From IMG/VR virus record IMGVR_UViG_3300010033_000002, positions 1 through 48,385 of that record: a DNA stretch of 48,385 nt; one strand, given 5' to 3'. This DNA is from a virus. Numbering within the stretch: position 1 is the first letter of the stretch; every line of letters begins with the position of its first letter. The notes under the pieces are model-generated. The model ran no database searches and was not told where the DNA came from. It saw only the letters and a list, made by a program, of their open reading frames with translations. Shown one piece after another: positions 7,096-48,385 of the stretch. A program made the translations under genes and the position numbers.

Positions 7096-7757
7096 TATCT
7101 TGTCCTGTTGTTGGAGAAGGTGAAAAGGTAGTCTTGATACAAATCATTGTCATGCAGGTAGGCAACCAAATCGTGGACGGCCTGAGACAACTGTGCCCCA
7201 ATATACCGCATGTCAGATTCACTGTGTTCAATTGGGATTTCATAGGTGTCAACAAGTTCCTTTCTGTCCTCACCTGCCCATTCTGCAACAAGGTATTTAA
7301 AGAATGTTTTGCCAGTCAGATATGGGTACAAACGATGTTGCCAGCCTTTTTTATACTTCTGTTCGCCTTTGTAATTAATAGTTGTCTTGATGTCATAAAT
7401 TCTGTCATCAAATTCAACATCCATTTTGCCATAGAATACAACGTTATATTCCCCTATCTGCAATTCCTTCTTGCAAACCTGTTGAAACTTGCCGCCTATG
7501 CATGCAGTCGCAATTTTGTTGAAGTGTTTTGACCCTTCAGTAACTTCCTTAAGCCCTTCAAACTCGGCGATTTGTGCGAATTTTTGCACCTCATCTTCAA
7601 AGGCATTACCCCATTGCACCCATTCGGGCATTTTGCCATATTCACGGCGTATGGTCTGTATGAAACCGGCCTCCGCTCTTTCCTTCCATGATGGTGGGGC
7701 GTTCTTGGCGAATTCCAATTTGTCTAATAAAGTCGGGGTTATCAAGTGTGTAGTCAT
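7095..7757 (-). CDS. PD-(D/E)XK family nuclease (phage exonuclease-like)
   Basis: GKMDVEFDDRIYDIKTT (D...D-x-K core) and QHRLY (QhxxY). There is a strong SD (AAAGGAGTTTTTAATG) at 7757. Confidence 0.7.
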   Translation of the reverse strand: MTTHLITPTLLDKLEFAKNAPPSWKERAEAGFIQTIRREYGKMPEWVQWGNAFEDEVQKFAQIAEFEGLKEVTEGSKHFNKIATACIGGKFQQVCKKELQIGEYNVVFYGKMDVEFDDRIYDIKTTINYKGEQKYKKGWQHRLYPYLTGKTFFKYLVAEWAGEDRKELVDTYEIPIEHSESDMRYIGAQLSQAVHDLVAYLHDNDLYQDYLFTFSNNRTR

Positions 7758-8133
7758 TAAAAACTCCTTTTAGTATAGCCACTTGATCTCTGTGGCCCAC
7801 AGCAAGCATATAATTAAGTTTTAAAGTCTGTGCGCGTTTCATGTAGGGCAGTTGTCCAGGTTGCCATTTGAGGTTGTCAAGCACAGACATAAGTCTATTC
7901 ACTTTTAGCATTTTACACTCTATAAACCAGTATTCCGCGCGTCGGAGTAACAGAACATCAGGGGTGCCATTTTGGTCCATATTCTCGATGTTATGGAACT
8001 TCCATCCCAATGGCCTTGACACATTTTTAATCAAGGCTTCAAGGGTTGTTTCACGCTTTAATGGGGACCTTAGCCTGAAAACTTCACAGGCTAAGGTATT
8101 TCCCATCAGGTCATAGGTTTGTTTGAATGTCAA
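7642..8133 (-). CDS. VRR-NUC / Holliday-junction-resolvase-like nuclease
   Basis: GTPDVLLL ... YWFIECKM ... WQPGQLPYM fits the D...ExK...Q pattern of VRR-NUC. The last 116 nt overlap the next gene out of frame. Confidence 0.65.
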   Translation of the reverse strand: MTFKQTYDLMGNTLACEVFRLRSPLKRETTLEALIKNVSRPLGWKFHNIENMDQNGTPDVLLLRRAEYWFIECKMLKVNRLMSVLDNLKWQPGQLPYMKRAQTLKLNYMLAVGHRDQVAILKGVFNDYTLDNPDFIRQIGIRQERPTIMEGKSGGRFHTDHTP

Positions 8134-8918
8134 AAGTTAGCTTTACCGGGATCTGTGCCGCCGGACGTGTTGGCACTTTCAGGAGCTTCAAGTAATGCAA
8201 GGTCAAGTGATTTATTGGGCAGTTCTTTGCGCTCTTCCACAACGTGGGTTAGGAGGTCAGGTGTAACAAACTGGTTAAATGTTATGTTGATACCCTCCCA
8301 TGAACCTTTATCGTTTGATTCTTCTGTGGTTTCAAGGTTCCAGACCATGAAATATGGCAAAGCCTTTGTGGTCTTTCCGGGTATAACGGTCCTGGTAAGA
8401 TTCATATTCAGTTTTTTGGCCTGTTTAAGTTGTGTTGATGTGAAACTGAACACGCACACACCGTCCTCAAGGTAGTCAGGAAACAGGACATAATAGACGT
8501 ATGTGTCCTGATATTCATTTCCTGTTGCCCTTGATACAAGCTTGCCCAGGTCATTACGGAACAGTTCACCACTGAACTGCATTTTTTCAATGAGTTCGGC
8601 GGCATGGGCATCGACGTACCCGCCCCTGTTTGGTTTCCATTCGATGTAATACCGCTCGAATTTGCCTACAACGAATCGCAAGGGTTTTTCGTAAACCCGT
8701 CCTGTTATCGTGTTTACGATATCGCCTTCGTCAAGTTCAGGGTCAAAATCCGCTGACCGCTTGTCAAGCTGAGGGCTGAGTTTCTGCATGATCCTCACAA
8801 ATGGGATTGCCATTGTGTCCATGTTCAGGTCCTCAAAGCCTGAATCTTCTCCCATAAGTTCGTTGAAGTGGTCAAAGTTGACTTGGGTTTCTTTCTTGTC
8901 TGCTTTTGCTTTTGCCAT
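8130..8918 (-). CDS. Conserved replication-module protein, function unknown (possible ssDNA-binding or annealing role)
   Basis: 262-aa ORF in the slot held by SSB-like proteins in PolA/SNF2/VRR-NUC phage modules. I could not recognise an OB-fold signature. It ends in ...GKANF. Confidence 0.75.
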   Translation of the reverse strand: MAKAKADKKETQVNFDHFNELMGEDSGFEDLNMDTMAIPFVRIMQKLSPQLDKRSADFDPELDEGDIVNTITGRVYEKPLRFVVGKFERYYIEWKPNRGGYVDAHAAELIEKMQFSGELFRNDLGKLVSRATGNEYQDTYVYYVLFPDYLEDGVCVFSFTSTQLKQAKKLNMNLTRTVIPGKTTKALPYFMVWNLETTEESNDKGSWEGINITFNQFVTPDLLTHVVEERKELPNKSLDLALLEAPESANTSGGTDPGKANF

Positions 8919-16672: not shown

Positions 16673-16969
16673 TTAATATTTAAGTTCAGCATCATATTCT
16701 GTTATCAAGCCGAATGCATCTATGTAAAATTTCTTATCCTGGACGCCGAATCTCACAACCTTGTGATCCATCGACAGCTTTTCCCAATCGTCACGTACCA
16801 TGTCTTCAACAAGGAATGTTTTTATCTCAATCTGGTCTTTCTCAGGTATGATTTTAGCGGCAACCATAATGCCAGGCATGGTGTTTGTGATTGAAATGCA
16901 AGTTCCGTTAGGTGCGTTTGTACGAGTTGTATAGGCCAGGTTACAGTTTTTGAAAGGGTCAGTAAACAT
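16673..16969 (-). CDS. Hypothetical protein (98 aa)
   Basis: Clean ORF. TAAATG junction with the upstream reading frame. Confidence 0.65.
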   Translation of the reverse strand: MFTDPFKNCNLAYTTRTNAPNGTCISITNTMPGIMVAAKIIPEKDQIEIKTFLVEDMVRDDWEKLSMDHKVVRFGVQDKKFYIDAFGLITEYDAELKY

Positions 16970-20005: not shown

Positions 20006-20035
20006 GTGCGCTCCTTTGTTGTGGTTGACCTTAAT
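20005..20035 (-). promoter_or_regulatory. Conserved 31-nt translation-initiation leader, copy 2
   Basis: Minus strand ATTAAGGTCAACCACAACAAAGGAGCGCACA, followed by TG of the start codon. Confidence 0.6.
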
Positions 20036-20049
20036 TGCTGTACATGATC

Positions 20050-20078
20050 AAGATACCAAGGCCTGGAAGGCCTGTCAA
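20050..20078 (-). promoter_or_regulatory. Sigma70-like promoter for the leftward early operon
   Basis: Minus strand TTGACA (20078-20073), a 17-nt spacer, then TATCTT (20055-20050). It sits about 40 nt upstream of the ATG at 20005. Confidence 0.55.
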
Positions 20079-20598
20079 GGTTTTTATTACTATTTTTAAT
20101 ATTTTGGGGATCACTGATATATCAGAGGCTAAGATGCCCTATTGACAAGGGTTTCAGGCCGTGGTGCTTGTAAGTGCTTGATATGATTGGAATAACCAAT
20201 GGGCAAGGCTGAGTGTTTTCCGAACGCTTGTTCAGGGTGTTCCATGATGTGGACTTTGGCGTGGAAAATGTTTCATAGGAGGCCTGTCAATAGTAAAGAT
20301 GTTAAAAAGTGTAAATTTCATGTAACATTGGCTTAGTGCTACCCCTGTTACGTTTTTGTAGAATATTCTACACTTTTTTAATAAGGGCCTGATATTGTTA
20401 TATATTGTTTACACTTTTGGGTTTTTGTTTTCAAGTTGTTGATATTACAAGGTAATCTGCTGTTCCGCCGCGCATGTTACCGAGATCATTGTATATATTT
20501 TTAAGTCCATGATATTATTGAGATTAACAGTGTTAGGGGACAGGTAACAATGTTTATGTCATTTGTGTCACGCCGGAAACCCTTGAGGCTGTAGGCGC

Positions 20599-20623
20599 GG
20601 GACAAAGTTCCGGACATGACACG
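20599..20623. repeat. Left arm of the 25-bp inverted repeat
   Basis: GGGACAAAGTTCCGGACATGACACG. The reverse complement of 20787-20811 is GGGACAAAATGCCGGACATGACACG, matching at 23 of 25 positions. Confidence 0.85.
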
Positions 20624-20786
20624 ATTCTGAGAGAAAAGTATTTTTTAGATTAGCAAGTGTTTATTAATATACAACGTTTACAGAGGTGAACACTGTTATT
20701 TTGGTCGTAAGTTACTGATATAATTGGCGATCCGAACTGATGTCTGATATATCAGATTTCAGCGATTTTTCGCGCTTTTTCTGGGC

Positions 20787-20811
20787 CGTGTCATGTCCGG
20801 CATTTTGTCCC
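20787..20811. repeat. Right arm of the 25-bp inverted repeat
   Basis: CGTGTCATGTCCGGCATTTTGTCCC, 163 nt from the left arm. Confidence 0.85.
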
Positions 20812-21279
20812 GGCCCTTTATCCATGCATGTTTCACGCGCTTGCGCTGAGGACACGAAAAAAGTTTTGGCACTTTTGTCTGGATCGTTAGTTATATCAAT
20901 AGGTTGTATGAACATTGAGTAAATTCAAGCACATAGGCACGAACAACCCAATATAACTTGTAATATCAATGACTTACGTTAAAATATACATGTGCGTGAG
21001 TATAACTAACTATATCAGTAACTTGTGGCATAACGGTTTTGAAAATAGAGATTTTGTAACGGTCATTTGGTACCACGTTCGTAACATTTCATACCACATT
21101 GTGGCAGTACCCCATCAAGCAAGAAGTGTGCCGACTGAACGACCATTCATAAAATCGCCAAGATCCGCTTGTGCCAGGGCTTTCCACGATTGGGGATATA
21201 TAACCAATGAACGGGCATTCATTTTTGGGTCATTATGACACATCATGTAACTTTTGATTAGATCTTGGAGGATTTAAAG

Positions 21280-21313
21280 AATGTGAGCCTAGATCTTACA
21301 CCAGGCTCACATT
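21280..21313. other. Perfect 11-bp stem-loop
   Basis: AATGTGAGCCT - 12-nt loop - AGGCTCACATT. There is no flanking U-tract. It is preceded by GGAGGATTTAAAGAATGTGA, an SD followed by a start-stop pair. Confidence 0.5.
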
Positions 21314-21338
21314 GAGGGAGGGTTATAAAAAGGTTGGG

Positions 21339-21437
21339 ATGCTTGATCTGATTCTTGTCTTATTAGTTCATGGTCTGTGTCTTTTCACCATCAACCTCAG
21401 TCCATGTCGCTGTGACTGTTCCGGTATCGTCGTGTAG
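21339..21437 (+). CDS. 32-aa hydrophobic Cys-tailed micro-ORF (speculative)
   Basis: Product MLDLILVLLVHGLCLFTINLSPCRCDCSGIVV. The SD is weak (AAAAGGTTGGG). It sits just downstream of the 21280-21313 hairpin. Confidence 0.15.
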   Translation: MLDLILVLLVHGLCLFTINLSPCRCDCSGIVV

Positions 21438-21610
21438 TTTTTGCACTTCCTTGGATCATTTGCCCATGATGTCATGTAGCAAGCCTGGTGATATCCATAC
21501 AGATGATGAGGACAGGAAGTGTTTTCACATTCGGGTATTCTATAGTTAAGTCATTGTTTTCTCCATACATTTAACTAATGTTAAGCAACAACCGTGCCAA
21601 CAAGCACAGA

Positions 21611-21765
21611 GCTAAAACATGGCTACATAACATCACATCAACGACAAAGGCCTAAACTTTCGTTTTAAGAGAGTTTAGGCCTTTGTCGGTACGGTAACAC
21701 TCAGAAAAGCTGAACCGATATGTTGTTGATTTTACTAACGATACTAACGTTAGATTAGTGTTAAC
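21611..21765 (-). repeat. Copy D of the three-copy intergenic element
   Basis: Its reverse complement begins TTAACACTAATCTAACGTTAGTAT...AAAATCAACAACATATCGGTTCAGCTTTTCTGAGTGTTACC and ends ...GTTATGTAGCCATG. It starts 4 nt after the endolysin stop. Confidence 0.7.
21641..21687 (-). terminator. Perfect 17-bp hairpin downstream of the endolysin unit (probable terminator)
   Basis: CGACAAAGGCCTAAACT - 13-nt loop - AGTTTAGGCCTTTGTCG. On the minus strand it is followed by TTGATGTGATGTT, which is only moderately U-rich. Confidence 0.55.
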
Positions 21766-21768
21766 TAT

Positions 21769-22320
21769 TCAAAAGTTTTTGCCACCTGAAAGGAAGCGCA
21801 TAATCCAGCCTGAAAGGAAGCGCCTATTGCTGTAGAGCTTGTCAAGACGGGCACGGGAATCTTTCATGCATAGAGTGTTGTAGCGTTTTATCAAAGCAAA
21901 TGCAAAGTAATAATACAAGTCACATGCTTCGTTAGTTTCAAGAGCGTTTATAGCCTCTATGCTTTTAGGACCAATGGAACCATCAACTTTAACTCCAATC
22001 TCTTTTTGTAGACTTTTTACAGGCCATGATACACCCATGTTGACAACACTGGTGAAGAGCAAGCTGGCTAAGTCCTGGTAATTAATGTCGTCGCCTTTTA
22101 TTCTGTTCCAGAATTCTGTACGGTAAAGAGCCTTGACATGATCATTGGCAAGGGTATTATCTCCAGGACCTACGACATACTCCCATCCCTCCCATTCAGG
22201 GAAAGCTTTCATGGATATACCAGCATAGGTAAGACCTCCTTTGTCTGTGGGGTCATCAACGAGCTTATACCCACCTTCAAGTTCCATGAGTAAGTTAAAG
22301 CACGGTTCAAAGTCTGCCAT
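21769..22320 (-). CDS. Endolysin: GH108-type muramidase with C-terminal peptidoglycan-binding domain
   Basis: LMELEGGYKLVDDPTDKGGLTYAGIS is the GH108 EGGY...D.GG.T.GI signature. VKVDGSIGPKSIEAINAL is PG_binding_3-like. Confidence 0.88.
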   Translation of the reverse strand: MADFEPCFNLLMELEGGYKLVDDPTDKGGLTYAGISMKAFPEWEGWEYVVGPGDNTLANDHVKALYRTEFWNRIKGDDINYQDLASLLFTSVVNMGVSWPVKSLQKEIGVKVDGSIGPKSIEAINALETNEACDLYYYFAFALIKRYNTLCMKDSRARLDKLYSNRRFLSGWIMRFLSGGKNF

Positions 22321-22321
22321 G

Positions 22322-22609
22322 TTATTCTCCTTTATCTTCCAGGGTTGACAGAAGGATTTCTACTTTCTTTAAATAGTCCGAGACATTTAAATCATTACAC
22401 TGTTTAAGTGATGCTATAGCATGTAAAACGGTAAACTCCGTGGTGTAATCAAATACTTTCTCCATGACCATATCCTGAATAAACGAAATACAGCTATCAT
22501 AATCATTTGATGTTAAGGCATAGGAGTCCCTCATTATATGGACAAGCTTAACCCTAAACTGAATAATACTTATAAGCAGTTTGTTTTTATGACTTGCTGC
22601 GGTACTCAT
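22322..22609 (-). CDS. Hypothetical protein (95 aa; start moved to the SD-supported ATG)
   Basis: AAAGGAGTGTTTATG at 22609. No TM segment, so it is not an obvious holin. Confidence 0.6.
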   Translation of the reverse strand: MSTAASHKNKLLISIIQFRVKLVHIMRDSYALTSNDYDSCISFIQDMVMEKVFDYTTEFTVLHAIASLKQCNDLNVSDYLKKVEILLSTLEDKGE

Positions 22610-22682
22610 AAACACTCCTTTATTAAAGATAGTTTGAGGCATACACAAACTGTATACCTCAAACTGTTACATCTGTCAATAG

Positions 22683-22877
22683 CTATTGCGAAGGCTTATC
22701 AGCAGGACCTGAATTATCCTTAAACTTCACAGCGAATTTAGGCAAAGGCAATACACGTTCATTCACAGCACCGAAATCGACACGGTTGATGTCAAACCAA
22801 AAGTTGTCATGCAGTTTGTCATTTGAAGCAGGCGGAGTAATAAGAACTTGAACACAACCATACAGGTCATATGACAC
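22683..22877 (-). CDS. Doubtful 64-aa ORF with GTG start
   Basis: Only a GTG start with a weak SD. The upstream in-frame sequence is open for 17 more codons with no start codon. Confidence 0.3.
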   Translation of the reverse strand: MSYDLYGCVQVLITPPASNDKLHDNFWFDINRVDFGAVNERVLPLPKFAVKFKDNSGPADKPSQ

Positions 22878-22937
22878 AGAGGCTACAACACCTTTGATAT
22901 AAACGTTATCGTTGTCTGCTGTGCCCTAAATAAAGAA

Positions 22938-22967
22938 CCCCCTGGTGGGAGCGCATCCACCAGGGGG
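22938..22967 (-). terminator. Rho-independent terminator of the GC-rich gene (possibly bidirectional)
   Basis: CCCCCTGGTGG - 8-nt loop - CCACCAGGGGG. On the minus strand it is followed by TTCTTTATTT, and on the plus strand by TTT. Confidence 0.7.
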
Positions 22968-23098
22968 TTTAAGTGCCGGAGCCTGCAAGTTATCGGGTGA
23001 TCGCTCCCAACCTGCGCATGGGGCGTCCGGCAGTCAAGCACCCGGCATAGGGCCGGGTGACGCGCCGGGAAGGCTGGTCAAACCTTCCGGACAGTCGT

Positions 23099-23635
23099 TC
23101 AGGAAGACTTCTTTTCAGCGGCCTTGCGGGCAGCTTCGTCGGGATCGTAGCCTTTCCAGGCTGCCGGTGCAACAGCGCCGGAGCCGACCCTTGTCCACGT
23201 TTCGGTTTCAACATCAAAGTCGATCCACAGACGTTCAGTTTTTTCACAGTTTTTAAGGGCATAGCCGACTTTACGCCGTGTCTCGGAACGTCCCCATTTC
23301 TTCAGCATGAACAGGTCCATTTCCGTAATGGTGGCACCGTCTTCAGGGAAGATTTCAGCAAGTTCACCGTTCATGGTATTGGTGCCGCCGGACCTGGTAA
23401 TAACGCCAAGGCGTTTCATTGCCGTCTGGACATCCTCGGGCAGGGCCTTGTATTCGGGGGATTCTGATGCAATAAACTTGGCAATGGTGTTCTTTGCCGC
23501 GCTGATCTCTGCGCGGGATTTTTTGGCCGCTTCTTTACGCTTGGCGTCGGCTTCTGACTTGGCTTCATTGGCCGCGATTTCTTCCGGGGAAAGCTCCAGT
23601 GTTTCCTCTGCTACTGCTTTTTTCTTACTTGCCAT
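23099..23635 (-). CDS. GC-rich 'moron' gene: Lys/Ala/Glu-rich N-terminus, unknown function
   Basis: 178-aa ORF with SD AAAGGAGAGACAAATG. Hand count of 23101-23160 gives 35/60 G+C, against 27/60 for 1681-1740. It has its own promoter-like TTGACA (23722-23717) and its own terminator. Confidence 0.8.
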   Translation of the reverse strand: MASKKKAVAEETLELSPEEIAANEAKSEADAKRKEAAKKSRAEISAAKNTIAKFIASESPEYKALPEDVQTAMKRLGVITRSGGTNTMNGELAEIFPEDGATITEMDLFMLKKWGRSETRRKVGYALKNCEKTERLWIDFDVETETWTRVGSGAVAPAAWKGYDPDEAARKAAEKKSS

Positions 23636-26760: not shown

Positions 26761-26912
26761 CTAAGTCATGGCTATATTATAACAAATCCCGTTTAAGGGG
26801 GTAAATTTAGCGTTTAACAAAGGTTAGTGCCACATGCGTATGTTTACATTGGAAAAGTCTGAATCAATATGTTACTGATTTGATTGAGCATATTAACATT
26901 AGATAAGTGTAC
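26761..26912 (-). repeat. Copy C of the three-copy intergenic element
   Basis: Its reverse complement begins GTACACTTATCTAATGTTAATAT...AAATCAGTAACATATTGATTCAGACTTTTCCAATGTAAAC and ends ...GTTATAATATAGCCATGAC. On the plus strand, ATATTAACATTAGATAAGTGT ends 35 nt before the ATG at 26946. Confidence 0.7.
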
Positions 26913-27287: not shown

Positions 27288-27460
27288 GCCTTGAAAATGC
27301 ATTAGAAATAACCTTAGAGCAAAGCCTTGAAACAGGTTTAGAACAAAAATACTCAGGCTCAACCCCTACACCCCGCCCGAGTCCATGGATACTTGAAACA
27401 GGTAGATGGAATGATGATGGCATATGGGTTGATACAGAGACTTGGAGGGACACACCATGA
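27284..27460 (+). CDS. 58-aa Trp-rich small protein (GTG start)
   Basis: GGAGG lies 7 nt upstream of the GTG at 27284. GTGTGA overlaps the upstream stop, and its own stop overlaps the next ATG (ATGA). Confidence 0.45.
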   Translation: MSLENALEITLEQSLETGLEQKYSGSTPTPRPSPWILETGRWNDDGIWVDTETWRDTP

Positions 27461-30400
27461 AACGCGCTTTACTTGCACTAACATTTTTACTTTTGCTGTG
27501 CTCAAATGCTTACGCAATTGACGCTATTCAGCCCAATGAAACCGGGCTTTCAGCACGAACAAAAATCAATGAAGCTTTTGGAGACATAACAGACCTTAAA
27601 GCTACAGCACCGACCACAGAACAAAAAACTATCCTGGGCTATCTGACTGATGAGACGGATGTTGTTAACTCATCCAAGGCTTTCAGGTTTCCACCTGGTA
27701 CTGTATATGTAGGTCAGACAGGTGTTAATACTGCTGTAATGGCACTTGGTGTCAGGAATGATCACACCGGTGATACCAGCATAGTTATTGCACAGGATTA
27801 CACAGGCACAGGGTTTGAAAATGCCTATGTTTACAGAACTGTAGCAGCAGATACAGTACCGTTGAATGATCCGGCAGGAACTGATGTTGCAAACACAGCG
27901 CAGTTTACAGCAACGACAACTGCTGATGAACTTATCCATACCGTAACAGTTGCAACAAATCAAGCTGATACAGCCGTAACATTTGATGTTACCTTAAGGC
28001 TTAACAGCCATACGGGCATGGAGATATTTGAGTTTGCAGGGAACTTGACCACTGATGCCACAGGACTTGCAACACTAAATCTCAGGACGAGCGGAAACCC
28101 TGTTATTGTTGATAACGCCACAACACTCTATGTCACTATCAATTGCTCAGGCATGTTAGGCCGTACAGTGGGTATGTCTTTTGTACCCAACTTGACTATT
28201 CACAGGGTACAGCTTGCCAGGAGTGACATAACAACTGCTGACAATATAATCACGCAACTTCAAGCCAAGACAGGCGATGACAGGTTAGATGCATCGGCCA
28301 TAAAGAACCTGCCTTCTACTGGTGCATACCTTACAAGCACAAGAGTTCCGACCGGTGTAGTATCAGGAACATGGACACAGGTTGATTTCAACGGTGTTCA
28401 CTTCCTGGCAGATAATACAGTAACAACATTTGCCGCCGGAGCCGCTGCCACTTTTGGCAGCGACACATTCTTCGCCGTTACCAACAATAACACGGCTAAT
28501 ATCACGTTTGATCTCAGCGCTCATGCTGCCACATTCAGTGGCAGTGAAAGTGGAAATACGGACACGATAAACGCCGGTACGACTACTGTGTACTATCATG
28601 ATAACGGCAGTCTTGCTCCGATATCCAATTACAATGAGGCCACAGGCACGGGTGGCGCAAGTGGAGACCATCCCGTGGTGCTCACCAGGGACACACCATC
28701 ATTGGCTGACCTTGGAACAATAGCCGGTGAAAGTGTCGGGGACAATTCGGGCTTATGGCTTGTAGCAAGTGACCAGATCTCAAGCATTGAAACAAACGTT
28801 GATAGCAGTATTATGATAAGGTCTTTGCGCTCAGGTATACTTGATGCCAATGGCGCGGAGATATCCACAACGGCTGTGCAGAAATCGGGTGTGATACTTG
28901 CAGGTGGTACAGTTGTAAGAGTGTTTAGCGCTACTGATTTGCGTGTAGTGTCAGGTCCTCTTATGGCAGCAGGTTCAAGGTATCCCGATATACCTGTCGT
29001 AACGTCGCCTTTAAGCCTTGTTGGTAATCAGATCATATATAACACCTATCGTAACCGCACCCTTGTATTGTCTGATTCCACAGGCACATTTTCTGTGTAC
29101 CTACCAAGTCTGCAAAATGCTCTTGACTTGTCATACCTGGATCGTAACGACGTATTTGCTTTTCGTAATGACACACCTAATGATGCTGTGTTTCGTATCA
29201 GGACCTTTCAGGTTGGTACATTTTTCAGCAGCGGAGGGCAAACTATAGACCTCAGCGCAGGCCAAACCCTTGTTGTTTCTCCTGCGCCGTCTGGTGCAGT
29301 ATGGCAGGTTTTAGCACTGGGTCAAAATTCCGATATAAACACTGAAACAATTACACTGAATACGGACTGGTATAGAGATGAAGCCGACGCCACAGCGGCA
29401 GACAATAGTGTCAGGTTACATTACAATCAGACAATTGAAAGTGGACTTGTCAGGGACCACATACTTGTAGACGATACAGGGCACACCAACAATCCGATAT
29501 CACTGAGATTTCAGCATAGGAATGTACAGGATGATATTGCTTGGATTCAGTGGTGGACAACCTGGGATTCAAGCGTACCCTCGTTAGGAGGCACCGTTGA
29601 AGAGATTGAAGCCAATATACCAACTGCATTGACCTATATAAACAGCAACATCGCATCTGGATTTGACTTTGAAATAGCCGCGCCTGACAGTGTATTGTCA
29701 ATACAGAGCATCGGATGGATATCAGGTAATGAGGTCAGGATCACGTTACACTCTGCCTTTATATCTCCAAGTTTCACAGTAAATCATCCTGTCAGGATAA
29801 ATGGAGCCACAAACAGTGTTCATAATGGCGTGTTTCTTATTGACAGCATTGGTACAACAGGAAGTAACATAACCATACATATTACTAATCCCGGTGTCAC
29901 TGATGGCACTACTGACGAGACAGCCGGTGGTTTTGTTGATGTTCCGGTTTATGCTGATGTTGTGTTTATCTCAAATGACCTCAGACAGGTGAATTTTAAC
30001 CTGTATAAAGACAGCGCAAGGACGAGTTTATGGACCACTATAAACTCCGATTGGTTTGACCCTGAGCACACTGGCGGGTCAAGTGTGTTGTCCATAGGCT
30101 ACAATACTGACATTCAGACACTTGGTTCTCAACTTGCCTTGCAAGACGATGCCGGGGACTGGTTTTCTGTTAAGGGTGGTCCACGCAATACGGTTGGCCT
30201 GCTGGATAACAGAACAAGCTATGTCAGTTCAGGGGTGTACACAAATCCGAGCCATGAGGTTATAAACATTGACACTCTTGGCATAGGCACATTTTATATA
30301 CCTGAGCACCCCAACCACCTTGAACCAGGAGAATCAAGAGTATATAGGATTCATGCCTACTCTACAAACGGAGGAAATGACACCACTGTGACGGCAGGCT

Positions 30401-31041
30401 CAATAGGCCAGCCCATAACATTTGACGAAGGTTTTCTTGGATTTGATATACTGCCTGGTAACTTTGGCGTATTCGAGCTTTACAATGATGGCACAACAAG
30501 TGGCGTCAGGATACTGTCGCCTGTAAGTAAATCCTCATCATCAACCACGTTGTACACTACGGCATCAGAGGCCAGTGTGGCTAACACTGACCCATTACCC
30601 ATGTCGTTTATTGACTTAATCAGCTCACAAAATGAGGACATAAACAGCAGGTTTTTTGCATTTGGGAGTCCGGCTGATTCTATCAACATGAGGGCAAATG
30701 CGGATTATACATTTGTGGGGTCTGTTGAAGTGTTGTTTAACGGTACAGAGGGTACAGGTATGCTATTTGTCCCTGTGACTCTGATGCCCATAATCAATGG
30801 TGATGACAAGGAGGAATTTGCCCATACTGTGAGTTTGGTCTTTTCAAGGAATGGTCAGACAGGTAGCTCAGCACCTAAGTTTTCACACACTTTGAAGGTA
30901 GCTTTTGAATGGCAGGGCAGTGTGAATGATACGCTATTTTACGATGTAAGGTTCGGAACATTTCCGGCAGGTTATGACCGGAGTGATATACAGGTTAGAA
31001 ACTGGAAGTTTTCCCAAACTGCGGAACTTAATTTAGACTAA
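27457..31041 (+). CDS. Giant (1194 aa) Thr/Ser/Asn/Gly-rich fibre/adhesin-like protein with a Sec-type signal peptide
   Basis: The start is chosen at the ATGA-coupled ATG. The N-terminus MKRALLALTFLLLLCSNAYA|ID is a canonical n-h-c signal ending in AxA. SARTKINEAFGDITDL resembles N-terminal motifs of phage fibres. Confidence 0.8.
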   Translation: MKRALLALTFLLLLCSNAYAIDAIQPNETGLSARTKINEAFGDITDLKATAPTTEQKTILGYLTDETDVVNSSKAFRFPPGTVYVGQTGVNTAVMALGVRNDHTGDTSIVIAQDYTGTGFENAYVYRTVAADTVPLNDPAGTDVANTAQFTATTTADELIHTVTVATNQADTAVTFDVTLRLNSHTGMEIFEFAGNLTTDATGLATLNLRTSGNPVIVDNATTLYVTINCSGMLGRTVGMSFVPNLTIHRVQLARSDITTADNIITQLQAKTGDDRLDASAIKNLPSTGAYLTSTRVPTGVVSGTWTQVDFNGVHFLADNTVTTFAAGAAATFGSDTFFAVTNNNTANITFDLSAHAATFSGSESGNTDTINAGTTTVYYHDNGSLAPISNYNEATGTGGASGDHPVVLTRDTPSLADLGTIAGESVGDNSGLWLVASDQISSIETNVDSSIMIRSLRSGILDANGAEISTTAVQKSGVILAGGTVVRVFSATDLRVVSGPLMAAGSRYPDIPVVTSPLSLVGNQIIYNTYRNRTLVLSDSTGTFSVYLPSLQNALDLSYLDRNDVFAFRNDTPNDAVFRIRTFQVGTFFSSGGQTIDLSAGQTLVVSPAPSGAVWQVLALGQNSDINTETITLNTDWYRDEADATAADNSVRLHYNQTIESGLVRDHILVDDTGHTNNPISLRFQHRNVQDDIAWIQWWTTWDSSVPSLGGTVEEIEANIPTALTYINSNIASGFDFEIAAPDSVLSIQSIGWISGNEVRITLHSAFISPSFTVNHPVRINGATNSVHNGVFLIDSIGTTGSNITIHITNPGVTDGTTDETAGGFVDVPVYADVVFISNDLRQVNFNLYKDSARTSLWTTINSDWFDPEHTGGSSVLSIGYNTDIQTLGSQLALQDDAGDWFSVKGGPRNTVGLLDNRTSYVSSGVYTNPSHEVINIDTLGIGTFYIPEHPNHLEPGESRVYRIHAYSTNGGNDTTVTAGSIGQPITFDEGFLGFDILPGNFGVFELYNDGTTSGVRILSPVSKSSSSTTLYTTASEASVANTDPLPMSFIDLISSQNEDINSRFFAFGSPADSINMRANADYTFVGSVEVLFNGTEGTGMLFVPVTLMPIINGDDKEEFAHTVSLVFSRNGQTGSSAPKFSHTLKVAFEWQGSVNDTLFYDVRFGTFPAGYDRSDIQVRNWKFSQTAELNLD

Positions 31042-31596: not shown

Positions 31597-31661
31597 CAAT
31601 AAAACATTGATTTTATTCCAGATTTCTGATAACTATATTAATATACCCGGAGGAAATCCCA

Positions 31662-46893: not shown

Positions 46894-48385
46894 TGGGCAG
46901 AGGGAATATCATATCAGGCGGCACAGGTGGGCTGTATACTGTTGAATTGGAATTCAATAATCAATCCATACTGTTCTATATCCAACAGGTTCAGGTTGCA
47001 ATAGACCGGCTTAACGCGCTTATACCTACCCTTGAAGAAGGTAGCAGGGCCAGGAATATAGCCGTGTTGCAAAAGTTGTCTTTCGAAAAGCGTATACAGT
47101 TGTTAAACGCCAGACTGCCGAGCAATGAAACTGTAACTGCTTGGTGTGCAGATCTTACAGAAGACTTGTCAGGACAGGTAGCGACACTGGAAATTCCCGG
47201 TGAAAAAGGTATAGTACAAATTGCACCAGGGTTTTTTGATAATGCAGCATGGACACCCCAGGATGGCCTTTTAAAATCAACCATGGCCCAAAATCCACCA
47301 CAAGCCTACTATAATTTAGCTCTGTTGCCTGCCTGGCAAAAATGGAGACCCACATATAGGCATGGCTCTATAACACGCTTAGACGGCGATATATGCGATT
47401 TAACGGTTGACACAACAGCATCCAGTCAACAAGGTCTAAACATCAATCAGACACCTACACTTGAAAACGTGAACATTGAGTATATGACGTGCAATGGTGC
47501 AGCATTTGAAGTTGGCGACAGCGTGTTAATTGAGTTTATGCAGCAGGATTGGGCACAGCCAAAAGTCATAGGGTTTAAGGACAGCCCAAGGCCCTGTATA
47601 GGGCTGTTTATAATTATCACATTCGGAGCTTATGTAACAGTTTGGGATGTGGAAAACAATCAAGTGGCCGACTCCGCCACTAACAACCAGGGCGATCCCG
47701 TAGTATTTCCTGCACTTGCTGATGATATAGTCGATTGGGCAAGCCAGTTCAAGGTTGTAGGCAGCAATTCTTTTACTGATAAATTAGGCTTTCGTCAGGT
47801 AACGGGAACTTTCCTTGATAGCACTGTAACATCGACACCTACAAGCAACCCTAATATACGCTGTATTAATATAGTTTCCACGAGTAATAATCAACCTCCG
47901 CCTTATGAGCTTGTTGATAATCTTGGAGAAGAAGAGCAACAACCGGAGTGGACAGGTTCTGGCAATGCCTGTAGCGATAACATCACAAGGGAACGCTCAG
48001 GTACTTCCACTGCCACTCTCTTGGCACCAACAGGCGGCCAAGGACTACCTACTCCTATTCTAAGGTCAGTGCAAAACTTCCCAAACCGTGAACGCTCTTT
48101 TGCATTACAAGTTGAAACTCACATTGACTATGAGGAATACTTTTGTGCAAACAGGGGTGAGCCTCTATGCTGTGGTCCAGCTTGCAAGAGCCTTGATGTA
48201 TTCTCACAAGTGTATTTTGAAAGAAACACATACACTTTGAAAAGTCCTTTTAGTGACTTGTCGGAATATGAGTGGACTGCCACAATTGAATCTCAATGGG
48301 AGTCTTCAATATCAAGGACAACGGGCACAGGTCCTTGTGACCCAATATGTGAACAAGAACTATCAAACACGCCTGAAATTGAATA
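46893..48385 (+). CDS. 5' part of the wrap-around distal tail/fibre-like gene (total about 638 aa, with 124..547)
   Basis: I translated this frame by hand from the ATG at 46893 (MGRGNIISGGTGGLYTVELEF...) to the window end and found no stop. The ORF track omits it because it has no stop inside the window. The C-terminal third is Cys-rich. Confidence 0.85.
   Translation, partial: MGRGNIISGGTGGLYTVELEFNNQSILFYIQQVQVAIDRLNALIPTLEEGSRARNIAVLQKLSFEKRIQLLNARLPSNETVTAWCADLTEDLSGQVATLEIPGEKGIVQIAPGFFDNAAWTPQDGLLKSTMAQNPPQAYYNLALLPAWQKWRPTYRHGSITRLDGDICDLTVDTTASSQQGLNINQTPTLENVNIEYMTCNGAAFEVGDSVLIEFMQQDWAQPKVIGFKDSPRPCIGLFIIITFGAYVTVWDVENNQVADSATNNQGDPVVFPALADDIVDWASQFKVVGSNSFTDKLGFRQVTGTFLDSTVTSTPTSNPNIRCINIVSTSNNQPPPYELVDNLGEEEQQPEWTGSGNACSDNITRERSGTSTATLLAPTGGQGLPTPILRSVQNFPNRERSFALQVETHIDYEEYFCANRGEPLCCGPACKSLDVFSQVYFERNTYTLKSPFSDLSEYEWTATIESQWESSISRTTGTGPCDPICEQELSNTPEIE
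48263..48385. repeat. Terminal direct repeat, right copy (identical to 1..123)
   Basis: Same 123-nt string as 1..123. Confidence 0.9.

Follow-up and report, generated by a model that had tools for sequence, protein, structure and literature searches.

A concentric quasi-palindrome in an uncultured siphovirus consists of opposed arrays of IHF-like boxes and most likely serves as a DNA-bending control or origin site rather than an invertible promoter

The window analysed here, a stretch of 48,385 nucleotides that makes up IMG/VR record IMGVR_UViG_3300010033_000002, is a circular assembly representing the 48,262-bp genome of a lytic siphovirus. The feature under study lies in a non-coding spacer of 1,763 bp (20006-21768), which extends from the stop codon of the endolysin gene on one side to the start of the first early gene on the other; the equivalent gaps in related phages measure 0.66-1.86 kb. 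No open reading frame with a Shine-Dalgarno sequence was found in the spacer, and stop-codon recoding is ruled out as the cause of this, as every one of the six frames holds all three stop types. A sigma-70-type early promoter (20078-20050, minus strand; TTGACA-17-TATCTT with a TG) precedes the first early gene by about 40 nt, and the sequence surrounding it is kept in two of the related phages (L133 and L134). The product of this gene, a protein of 153 aa, has no match in Pfam, the PDB or Foldseek (predicted fold pLDDT 86). Its homologues were tried as a guide to the box family described below and were uninformative, being found in unrelated phages that have their own, different repeat boxes. 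At the distal bound of the spacer the endolysin gene is followed by a strong hairpin (21642-21688), which is probably a bidirectional terminator. A scan for local RNA structure revealed nothing striking besides this hairpin and the arm regions of the palindrome, and a search for tandem repeats returned trivial ones only. Strong use of Shine-Dalgarno sequences, together with a GH108 endolysin, suggests a Gram-negative host that uses such sequences. No gene for IHF or HU was found in the phage.

Within 20171-21025 the spacer contains eight copies of a box, AAGTnnnTGATAT, six of them exact and two degenerate (20172-21024); only one further exact copy occurs elsewhere in the 48 kb. On the opposite strand AAGTnnnTGATAT corresponds to the IHF consensus WATCARNNNNTTR; as read in the window the box is TATCARNNNNTTR, which agrees with the consensus for Escherichia coli IHF. 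Seven of the eight boxes match WATCARNNNNTTR perfectly and the remaining one has a single mismatch. The window as a whole has 15 perfect matches, 7 of them within 855 bp, whereas 100 shuffles of the window gave a mean of 5.7 per whole 48 kb. The box family has the consensus AATnA-WWWCAR-NNNN-TTR, and its boxes are asymmetric and about 25 bp long; those of the window are irregularly spaced (49-211 bp). Five of them are oriented towards the early genes and three in the opposite direction, and they therefore form two opposed arrays.

Relatives of the phage were found through its ligase, and a sequence model (R1) was built from 22 of their boxes, with the window excluded. When R1 was run on both strands of the 48 kb, the six best matches were boxes of the window, each on the correct strand. 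Box 1 (TATCAAGCACTTA, 20171-20183, minus strand; R1 20167-20191(-), E 0.0039) belongs to the proximal array, lies closest to the early promoter and matches WATCARNNNNTTR perfectly. The left arm of the palindrome carries box 2 (TATCAGGCCCTTA, 20382-20394, minus strand; arm box A), which is also a perfect match and aligns with 21013-21025, box 3 (TATCAACAACTTG, 20432-20444, minus strand; arm box B; R1 20425-20452(-), E 0.0055), which is near-identical to boxes of L140 and L138, and box 4 (TATCATGGACTTA, 20502-20514, minus strand; arm box C; R1 20495-20521(-), E 0.02), which has the one consensus mismatch. The central box 5 (TATCAGTAACTTA, 20708-20720, minus strand; R1 20701-20726(-), E 0.0015) is the top R1 match of the whole window, and its reverse complement is TGATATAAT. 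The boxes of the right arm are on the plus strand and comprise box 6 (TATCAATAGGTTG, 20894-20906; arm box C'; R1 20888-20909(+), E 0.22), which is directly followed by ATGAACA, as are boxes in L140 and L138, box 7 (TATCAATGACTTA, 20964-20976; arm box B'; R1 20957-20983(+), E 0.0032) and box 8 (TATCAGTAACTTG, 21013-21025; arm box A'; R1 21011-21029(+), E 1.3).

The earlier note had described this region as a concentric imperfect palindrome. Its coordinates and matches proved correct throughout on recheck, and the symmetry exceeds chance. In the inner pair, 20599-20623 agrees with the reverse complement of 20787-20811 at 23 of 25 positions, and the match can be extended to 31 nt at 87% identity (20593-20623 and 20787-20817), leaving 163 nt between the arms; the left arm contains AAGTTCCGG and two GGACA repeats, and the right arm pairs with it. 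As noted before, this pair is GC-rich in an AT-rich context, with 61% GC compared with 40% over the spacer as a whole and 34% in the core. Within the core the left half is AT-rich (27-32% GC), as are, to an equal degree, two segments of the arms. The inner and outer pairs do share a centre (20705 and 20704). The outer pair, TTGATATTACAAG at 20439-20451 and its reverse complement at 20957-20969, and a third pair, AAGTTACTGATATA at 20709-20722 and 21011-21024, are perfect as reported, but neither is an independent repeat: the members of both are copies of the AAGTnnnTGATAT box, the outer pair being carried by boxes 3 and 7 and the right member of the third pair by box 8. Similarly, the 163-bp core (20624-20786) does contain TGATATAAT (20716-20724) and the palindrome CTGATATATCAG (20744-20755), but TGATATAAT, previously taken for a promoter element, is the central copy of the box. 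The 12-bp palindrome CTGATATATCAG has two perfect copies in the 48 kb, both inside the spacer, the second of which (20114-20125) is located between box 1 and the early promoter and is a candidate operator.

The symmetry extends beyond the GC-rich pair. When that pair is left out, the outer arms keep the same alignment register with a local alignment score of 38, against 21-22 +/- 3.2 (maximum 34) for a null of 500 shuffles and 960 other windows of the genome. Over their full length the arms (20383-20623 and 20787-21024) align at 58% identity with small indels only, and their box spacings are collinear (50/70 and 49/70 bp), giving a quasi-palindrome with a total span of 640 bp in this phage. 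The gaps between boxes are enriched in a GTTCCG motif in the window, L133, L134 and L138. The quasi-palindrome is a lineage-specific inverted duplication of the box array, including its GC-rich sub-box, of which the boxes alone stayed conserved, and its concentric form is the outcome of this.

A search for the same boxes in related genomes had been proposed, and at least seven distantly related, uncultured phages proved to carry the box family, in opposed arrays and in a spacer between terS and the early genes. The window has eight boxes and the relatives have three to eight, and polarity is shared: in the window, L133, L134, L138 and L140 the distal boxes point away from the early genes and the proximal ones towards them. 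R1 also matches boxes in L139 and L142, neither of which was used to build it, and gave nothing below E 0.19 on 80 kb of control loci. No clear boxes are present in L137, L141 and L143 within the DNA fetched, and MW202621, a distant cultured or annotated relative, has no box cluster. With the spacer as query, megablast and blastn returned no match among 50,697 phage records, a search with a 41-nt consensus box found chance matches only, and no close relatives were found when two flanking proteins were used as queries in IMG/VR. A motif-pair scan of IMG/VR was set aside, as its more than 119 loci were mostly chance matches, coding tandem repeats and an unrelated palindromic element.

The boxes of the relatives are mostly one base off the strict IHF consensus (TTTCAA, TTACAG, AAACAG), and the conserved positions of the family exceed those that IHF is known to read. 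The A/T tracts of the boxes are on the TTR side and not 5' of WATCAR. Strong IHF sites such as lambda H' have an A/T-rich tract upstream of WATCAR, and such a tract is absent from many natural IHF sites.

In the most likely reading the feature is a cis-acting site of DNA bending that serves as a control element or an origin; it is not read as an invertible promoter. Symmetric binding by a protein and an origin-type structure were among the earlier suggestions, and both fit what is observed, since the repeats are conserved boxes of a protein-binding type in two opposed arrays. The boxes would be bound by a DNA-bending protein, either an IHF-type protein of the host or a conserved protein of the phage whose recognition frame is similar, and binding would compact some 850 bp into a nucleoprotein complex folded around the AT-rich, GC-clamped core, in which the inner GC-rich pair may serve as a second class of binding site rather than as a crossover site. 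We give roughly even chances to the proposal that this complex marks the replication origin of the phage and also acts from upstream as an enhancer of the adjacent sigma-70 early promoter (20078-20050). The canonical early promoter adjoins the proximal array, and iteron origins are recognised by several copies of a specific repeat of about 20 bp in non-coding DNA, as supplied by the eight boxes of the window; DnaA boxes are not enriched. The cumulative GC skew has its minimum at 16,843 and a broad trough (16.8-24.5 kb) that includes the site, a signal confounded by gene orientation. Candidate initiators are an AEP-type primase and the conserved early proteins.

A wider proposal, which we regard as unlikely, is that the boxes constitute a hitherto undescribed family of polar cis-elements whose reader is a conserved protein of the phages and not host IHF. 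The opposed arrays would then set direction around a central initiation point, much as Ter or KOPS sites set direction around a terminus, and would define the origin or packaging start for a whole clade of uncultured PolA/AEP-primase siphoviruses, the quasi-palindrome being a recent doubling.

It is likewise possible, if improbable, that the boxes serve transcriptional control only, as upstream activator or bending sites each directed towards its promoter (the early one and an ancestral one on the terS side), with the CTGATATATCAG palindromes as operators. In the relatives the boxes are oriented in line with the divergent operons on either side, and a gap of 30-100 bp separates the end of the proximal array from the predicted early promoter downstream in the window, L133 and L134; the restriction of both CTGATATATCAG copies to the spacer is in keeping with operators. 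Lambda pL and Mu Pe are examples of promoters activated by IHF sites that lie upstream of them. However, five to eight boxes over 600-900 bp are far above what is known from IHF-activated promoters, and the distal array of the window now faces no gene, yet is retained as part of the conserved inverted duplication. The position of the spacer next to terS in most relatives suits a pac or cos site as well as it does divergent promoters.

The main alternative to an origin and enhancer role is a packaging recognition site, which we consider quite unlikely. In a site of the pac or cosB type the boxes, with or without the GTTCCG sub-boxes, would be bound by the small terminase and a bending protein, and the arrays would flank the packaging start. 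In six relatives (L135, L136, L138, L141, L142 and L143) the spacer is directly upstream of terS, the usual place for pac or cos; the large subunit of L136 is of the Terminase_3 type, and the circular assembly is compatible with headful packaging. Inverted TerS sites are arranged around an IHF bend in lambda cosB. Against this, the spacer of the window is about 2.3-4 kb from terS with three intervening genes, the TerS proteins are only 32-43% identical though the boxes are well conserved, and L135 has the terS-adjacent gap without the boxes.

A long structured RNA, also suggested earlier, would be a non-coding transcript that starts from one of the -10-like sequences associated with the boxes, has a length of about 230-300 nt and is closed by the long GC-rich stem. 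The stem does fold: region 20540-20850 reaches -110.6 kcal/mol on the plus strand (z -6.1) and -92.9 kcal/mol on the minus strand (z -5.3), values that would be expected of any inverted repeat, and, of the two mismatches between the arms, one can pair as G-U on the plus strand. Rfam gave no match to this structure even at E<5 and none at gathering score over the window, with two chance-level matches (E 0.4-0.8) in other parts of the spacer; the right arm is not followed by a convincing terminator, and the core has no strong local structure. The central repeats of the relatives have another sequence and spacing, so that no covariation test is possible. Such an RNA is therefore at best weakly supported, and we consider it very unlikely. 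Cruciform extrusion with a 163-bp loop is unlikely from the general kinetics of cruciforms.

An invertible promoter switch, the first of the earlier suggestions, is not supported. A recombinase would invert 20624-20786 between the GC-rich repeats of 25-31 bp and so flip a promoter at TGATATAAT, and the 31-nt inverted repeat does flank a segment with a -10-like sequence. The absence of a recognisable recombinase, which the earlier note had itself remarked on, was borne out, as neither a tyrosine nor a serine recombinase was found among the approximately 50 ORFs scanned with Pfam or PHROGs; a host enzyme could act instead. The Logan SRR5215458 and ENA ERZ27245420 assemblies, possibly not independent samples, are identical and show one orientation. 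The inverted symmetry continues for about 240 bp beyond the supposed crossover sites. Moreover, the -10-like element reads into no gene in either orientation: transcription from it would run rightward through about 1 kb of non-coding DNA to the terminator, or leftward through about 700 bp of spacer that already has a promoter of its own. TGATATAAT is a member of the box family, and the family is not conserved as an extended -10 would be. Across the box copies TGATAT and the flanking Y/R positions are invariant, including positions not critical for sigma-70, while the T at -7 that the sigma-70 pattern TGnTAnnnT calls for, along with T-12 and A-11, is found in only 5/9 copies; on the same strand the homologous boxes of the relatives read TGAAATCAT, TGTAATTAC or TGTTTTTAT, none of which is a -10 element. 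Inversion is thus extremely unlikely. A single repeated binding box can mimic both a "perfect" -10 and several "independent" inverted repeats, and caution is warranted when such features are found together. A remnant of a mobile element (MITE or IS fragment) inserted in the spacer is hardly credible, as the MITE-like size of 225 bp and GC-rich terminal repeats of 25-31 bp in an AT-rich context are offset by the lack of a visible target-site duplication flanking the arms or of a second copy in the window, by single-arm matches only (23-28 nt, mostly inside coding sequence of acidobacterial-type contigs) in viral, genome and metagenome collections, by symmetry that goes on outside the supposed element, and by an arm motif common to the relatives.

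The phase-variation account is therefore dropped in favour of a testable box family with fixed polarity in the main control region of an uncultured phage clade. If the boxes are IHF sites, they would suggest a proteobacterial-type host and dependence of early development on a host factor; if instead a phage protein reads them, they would represent an origin or packaging signal of a new kind. In both cases they provide an annotation landmark for the boundary between early and late genes in these genomes.

Several known systems share parts of this layout. Promoter inversions of the fimS, hin/gin and Bacteroides types likewise have a short inverted repeat flanking a segment of a few hundred bp with a -10-like sequence. 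In contrast to these, the locus described here has no recombinase, no second orientation has been seen and no gene lies downstream either way, inverted repeats are present in the flanks too, and the "promoter" belongs to a family of binding boxes. The injection-stop (iss) region of phage T5 contains long inverted repeats with paired DnaA boxes, in a layout that its relatives have kept while diverging in their coding regions (bioRxiv 10.1101/866236). Its sequence is unrelated to that of our spacer, in which the host-factor motif is IHF-like instead of DnaA, and there is no sign here of two-step injection or of terminal repeats; the T5 mechanism is itself hypothetical. The pSC101 origin and the R6K gamma origin combine repeats of about 20 bp, sites for bending proteins, an AT-rich segment and inverted repeats in one non-coding region adjoining replication genes, as does the spacer. 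Their iterons, however, form direct arrays with a spacing of about 22 bp, as opposed to the irregular 49-211 bp of the opposed arrays, and here DnaA boxes are not enriched and the initiators are candidates only. The cosB (R3-I1-R2-R1) and attP (H1/H2/H') sites of lambda differ in having one to three sites over about 200 bp, compared with five to eight boxes over 600-900 bp; here there is no integrase, the boxes have conserved positions beyond the IHF consensus, and binding is predicted from sequence. The lambda sites nevertheless have in common with the boxes the use of asymmetric sites matching WATCARNNNNTTR, the opposite orientation of specific protein sites across a bend and, as far as the relatives are concerned, a non-coding location near terS, the site in the window being about 3 kb from that gene.

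The concentric palindrome at 20439-20969 is, from comparison of its two arms and of related phages, an inverted duplication, specific to this lineage, of one part of a conserved array of putative protein-binding boxes. The coordinates and matches reported in the earlier note were all correct on rechecking. The inner repeats (20599-20623 and 20787-20811) match at 23 of 25 positions and extend to 31 nt at 87%, while the outer 13-mers (20439-20451 and 20957-20969) and a third pair of 14-mers (20709-20722 and 21011-21024) are perfect inverted repeats. The proposed common centre is borne out, with computed centres at 20705 and 20704 and a core of 163 bp (20624-20786), as is the GC-rich character of the inner pair in an AT-rich context (arms 61% GC, core 34%). 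The concentric arrangement is not due to chance: when the GC-rich pair is left out, the outer arms still align in register with a local score of 38, whereas 500 shuffles and 960 windows of the genome gave 21-22 +/- 3.2 with a maximum of 34. Aligned over their 241 and 238 nt, the arms share 58% identity with only small indels. Their conservation is concentrated in islands, namely three equally spaced boxes per arm (at 50/70 bp in the left arm and 49/70 bp in the right one), the GC-rich pair, and an island reading TGTC...GAAAC. The collinearity of these islands and the overall identity of the arms indicate one large, diverged inverted duplication (20383-20623 versus 20787-21024). The AT-rich left flank also contains a perfect 16-bp palindrome, TGTAGAATATTCTACA (20357-20372), nested in an imperfect 23-nt inverted repeat (20305-20327 and 20396-20418).

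The outer pair, the third pair and the extended -10 had been listed as separate elements; their sequences are as described, but all are copies of a single box, AAGTnnnTGATAT. Within 20172-21024 this box occurs six times exactly and twice in degenerate form; the rest of the 48 kb has one exact copy. Read on the opposite strand the box becomes TATCARNNNNTTR and so matches the classical IHF consensus WATCARNNNNTTR. The window contains 15 perfect matches to this consensus, seven of them inside 855 bp; 100 shuffles of the window gave a mean of 5.7 across all 48 kb. All nine copies keep the R that flanks TTR, though it was absent from the search pattern. The way the copies are conserved is not that of a sigma-70 -10 element, the reading given to the "perfect extended -10": the critical -7 T occurs in only five of the nine copies, whereas the positions that would be -13 and -10 do not vary. 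In the IHF orientation, five boxes on the minus strand (20183, 20394, 20444, 20514 and 20720) face the early genes and three on the plus strand (20894, 20964 and 21013) face away from them, giving two opposed arrays. Two further perfect IHF-consensus matches, at 26862-26874 and 31600-31612, fall in the late-gene region, where each occupies a short intergenic gap immediately ahead of a plus-strand gene.

The assembly is circular, since the first 123 nt of the window are identical to the last (1-123 and 48263-48385), and its unit length is 48,262 bp. It represents a tailed phage, whose plus strand encodes, from 24.1 kb, a tape-measure protein, HK97-type capsid, portal and terminase; a 1,199-aa ORF between the large terminase and portal genes (27442-31041) has no Pfam or PHROG matches. 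The early and replication genes form a block on the minus strand, running from 23.6 kb to 1.6 kb, and encode a family A DNA polymerase, UvrD- and SNF2-type helicases, an AEP-type primase, an ATP-dependent ligase and Pam3 gp33/gp34-like proteins. Strong AAGGAG ribosome-binding sites precede the genes of the window, a search of which returned no tRNA genes, and neither an RNA polymerase nor an HU/IHF gene was found among its ~50 ORFs. The palindrome lies in a gap of 1,763 bp (20006-21768) flanked by the stop of a GH108 endolysin gene and by the start of the first early gene; the two genes are on the minus strand. This gap has no ORF preceded by a ribosome-binding site, and all three stop codons are present in each of its six frames. 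A strong hairpin with a near-perfect 16-bp stem (21642-21688; z -8 to -9 on both strands) directly past the endolysin stop is probably a bidirectional terminator closing the lysis cassette. At the other end, a canonical sigma-70 promoter (TTGACA-17-TATCTT with TG; 20078-20050, minus strand) is predicted ~40 nt ahead of the first early gene. Its surroundings are conserved in three phages (window 20040-20110, L133 3690-3760 and L134 1550-1600), AGTAA(A/T)AAACC being followed by TTGACA in the window or CTTTACTT in the other two. The 12-bp palindrome CTGATATATCAG, a candidate operator for a dimeric regulator, has only two copies in the 48 kb, one between the early promoter and the first box (20114-20125) and one within the core (20744-20755).

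No close relatives of the window phage were found, DNA searches of phage records giving no matches. The best match to the large terminase in a large protein collection is 58-59% identical, and the window's own proteins occur on two contigs, both identical to the window and in the same orientation. Searches with the ligase led to uncultured phages that share the order of the replication genes, and in several of them a long non-coding gap precedes the early genes (1.86 kb in L133, 0.66 kb in L134, 1.8 kb in L136, 1.5 kb in L138, at least 0.96 kb in L140 and ~1.07 kb in L142). A search for the boxes in related genomes, as the earlier note had suggested, revealed homologous boxes in these gaps, of the form AATnA-WWWCAR-NNNN-TTR and including near-identical examples (AATCAATGACTTA in L138 versus TATCAATGACTTA in the window, and TTTCAACAACTTA in L140 versus TATCAACAACTTG). 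A sequence-only model built from 22 boxes of the relatives alone, leaving out those of the window against circularity, was run over both strands of the whole window; its six best matches there are boxes, each on the expected strand (E 0.0015 to 0.22). This model also detects boxes in L139 and L142, neither among its training loci, and gave nothing below E 0.19 on control loci totalling 80 kb. In the loci used for training, all matches but three are confined to the gaps, and two of these three fall in a second L140 gap. Different boxes were encountered in unrelated phages that each encode a homologue of the 153-aa product of the first early gene: GTATATACTCTTATATA, repeated in both orientations, in a non-coding region of L004 (1166-2438), and arrays of AAATCTCAA in one of L007 (5037-5485). 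Another phage contig with such a homologue, L005, carries an IS605 OrfB/TnpB (Cas12f-like) gene (7515-8699).

Box polarity is uniform wherever it is readable (the window, L133, L134, L138 and L140), distal boxes pointing away from the early genes and proximal boxes towards them. Close to the switch in polarity there is a short inverted repeat or hairpin, the sequence and spacing of which differ among phages, with arms of 13 bp and a spacer of 72 nt in L134, 24 and 143 nt in L133, and 31 and 163 nt in the window. Where the window has TGATAT, the relatives have TGAAAT, TGTAAT or TGTTTT on the same strand, so the promoter reading fails there. A second short motif, RAGTTCCG(G/T), which forms part of the GC-rich inner arm, is 4- to 6-fold enriched in the gaps of the window (20462, 20607 and 21418), L133 (2913-3372), L134 (1329-1373) and L138 (3930-4215). 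That the boxes exist, cluster, are conserved and follow a polarity is established, and a box family and polarity rule conserved across an uncultured phage clade are now directly testable. On an unrelated viral contig (IMGVR_UViG_3300007177_000009), sigma-54-like TGGCAC-N5-TTGC sequences, each followed by a perfect ~66-nt palindrome, recur about every kilobase on one strand.

Besides the origin role preferred below, the arrays may have one of two other functions. They could serve purely as a transcriptional enhancer for divergent promoters, as the relatives' box polarity follows the flanking operons. Alternatively the region could be a packaging site: in six relatives (L135, L136, L138, L141, L142 and L143) the gap is directly between the small terminase gene, terS, and the early operon, with a p178 homologue downstream. 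Against this, a p178-p95-endolysin block (21769-23635, minus strand) separates terS from the gap in the window, a difference in placement that indicates rearrangement. The structured RNA envisaged in the earlier note is possible only trivially, the region folding as any inverted repeat would; there are no Rfam matches in the window, a clear terminator was not found and the pairing is not conserved in relatives. Inversion of the core as a promoter switch is disfavoured for five reasons: a search of the ~50 ORFs showed no recombinase, as had already been remarked, both assemblies show a single orientation, the -10-like element would have no gene in front of it whichever way the core is turned, this element belongs to the binding-box family, and the symmetry runs far past the proposed crossover points. 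A MITE is also unlikely: no target duplication is present, and neither the rest of the window nor the collections searched contain a further copy.

We prefer a replication origin that would also enhance the early promoter, because the boxes are multiple in the manner of iterons, the core is AT-rich, the site adjoins the replication genes within the trough of the GC skew, and the window has kept both arrays although no operon lies in front of its distal one. GC skew and DnaA-box counts do not discriminate among origin, packaging and transcriptional roles. Symmetric protein binding or an origin-type structure, also among the earlier proposals, fits the conserved opposed arrays. A DNA-bending protein may bind the boxes and, once bound, would fold the region around the AT-rich, GC-clamped core. 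Candidates are a host IHF-type protein, in view of the exact consensus that the window carries, or a phage protein that is conserved and uses the same CAR-N4-TTR frame. Three points tell against simply assigning the boxes to IHF: those of relatives are usually one base off the strict consensus, the A/T tract is on the TTR side, and extra flanking positions are conserved.

The iss region of phage T5 is a 1.66-kb untranslated, repeat-rich segment whose long inverted repeats bear paired boxes for a host factor (DnaA), a layout kept among T5 relatives (bioRxiv 10.1101/866236). The layout of the window region is similar. In its working mode the region may be likened to the IHF-organised phage sites cosB and attP of lambda, and to the iteron origins of pSC101 and R6K gamma, which use IHF. 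Membership in none of these is demonstrated, the likeness to cosB/attP and the iteron origins being one of working mode and that to T5 iss one of layout.
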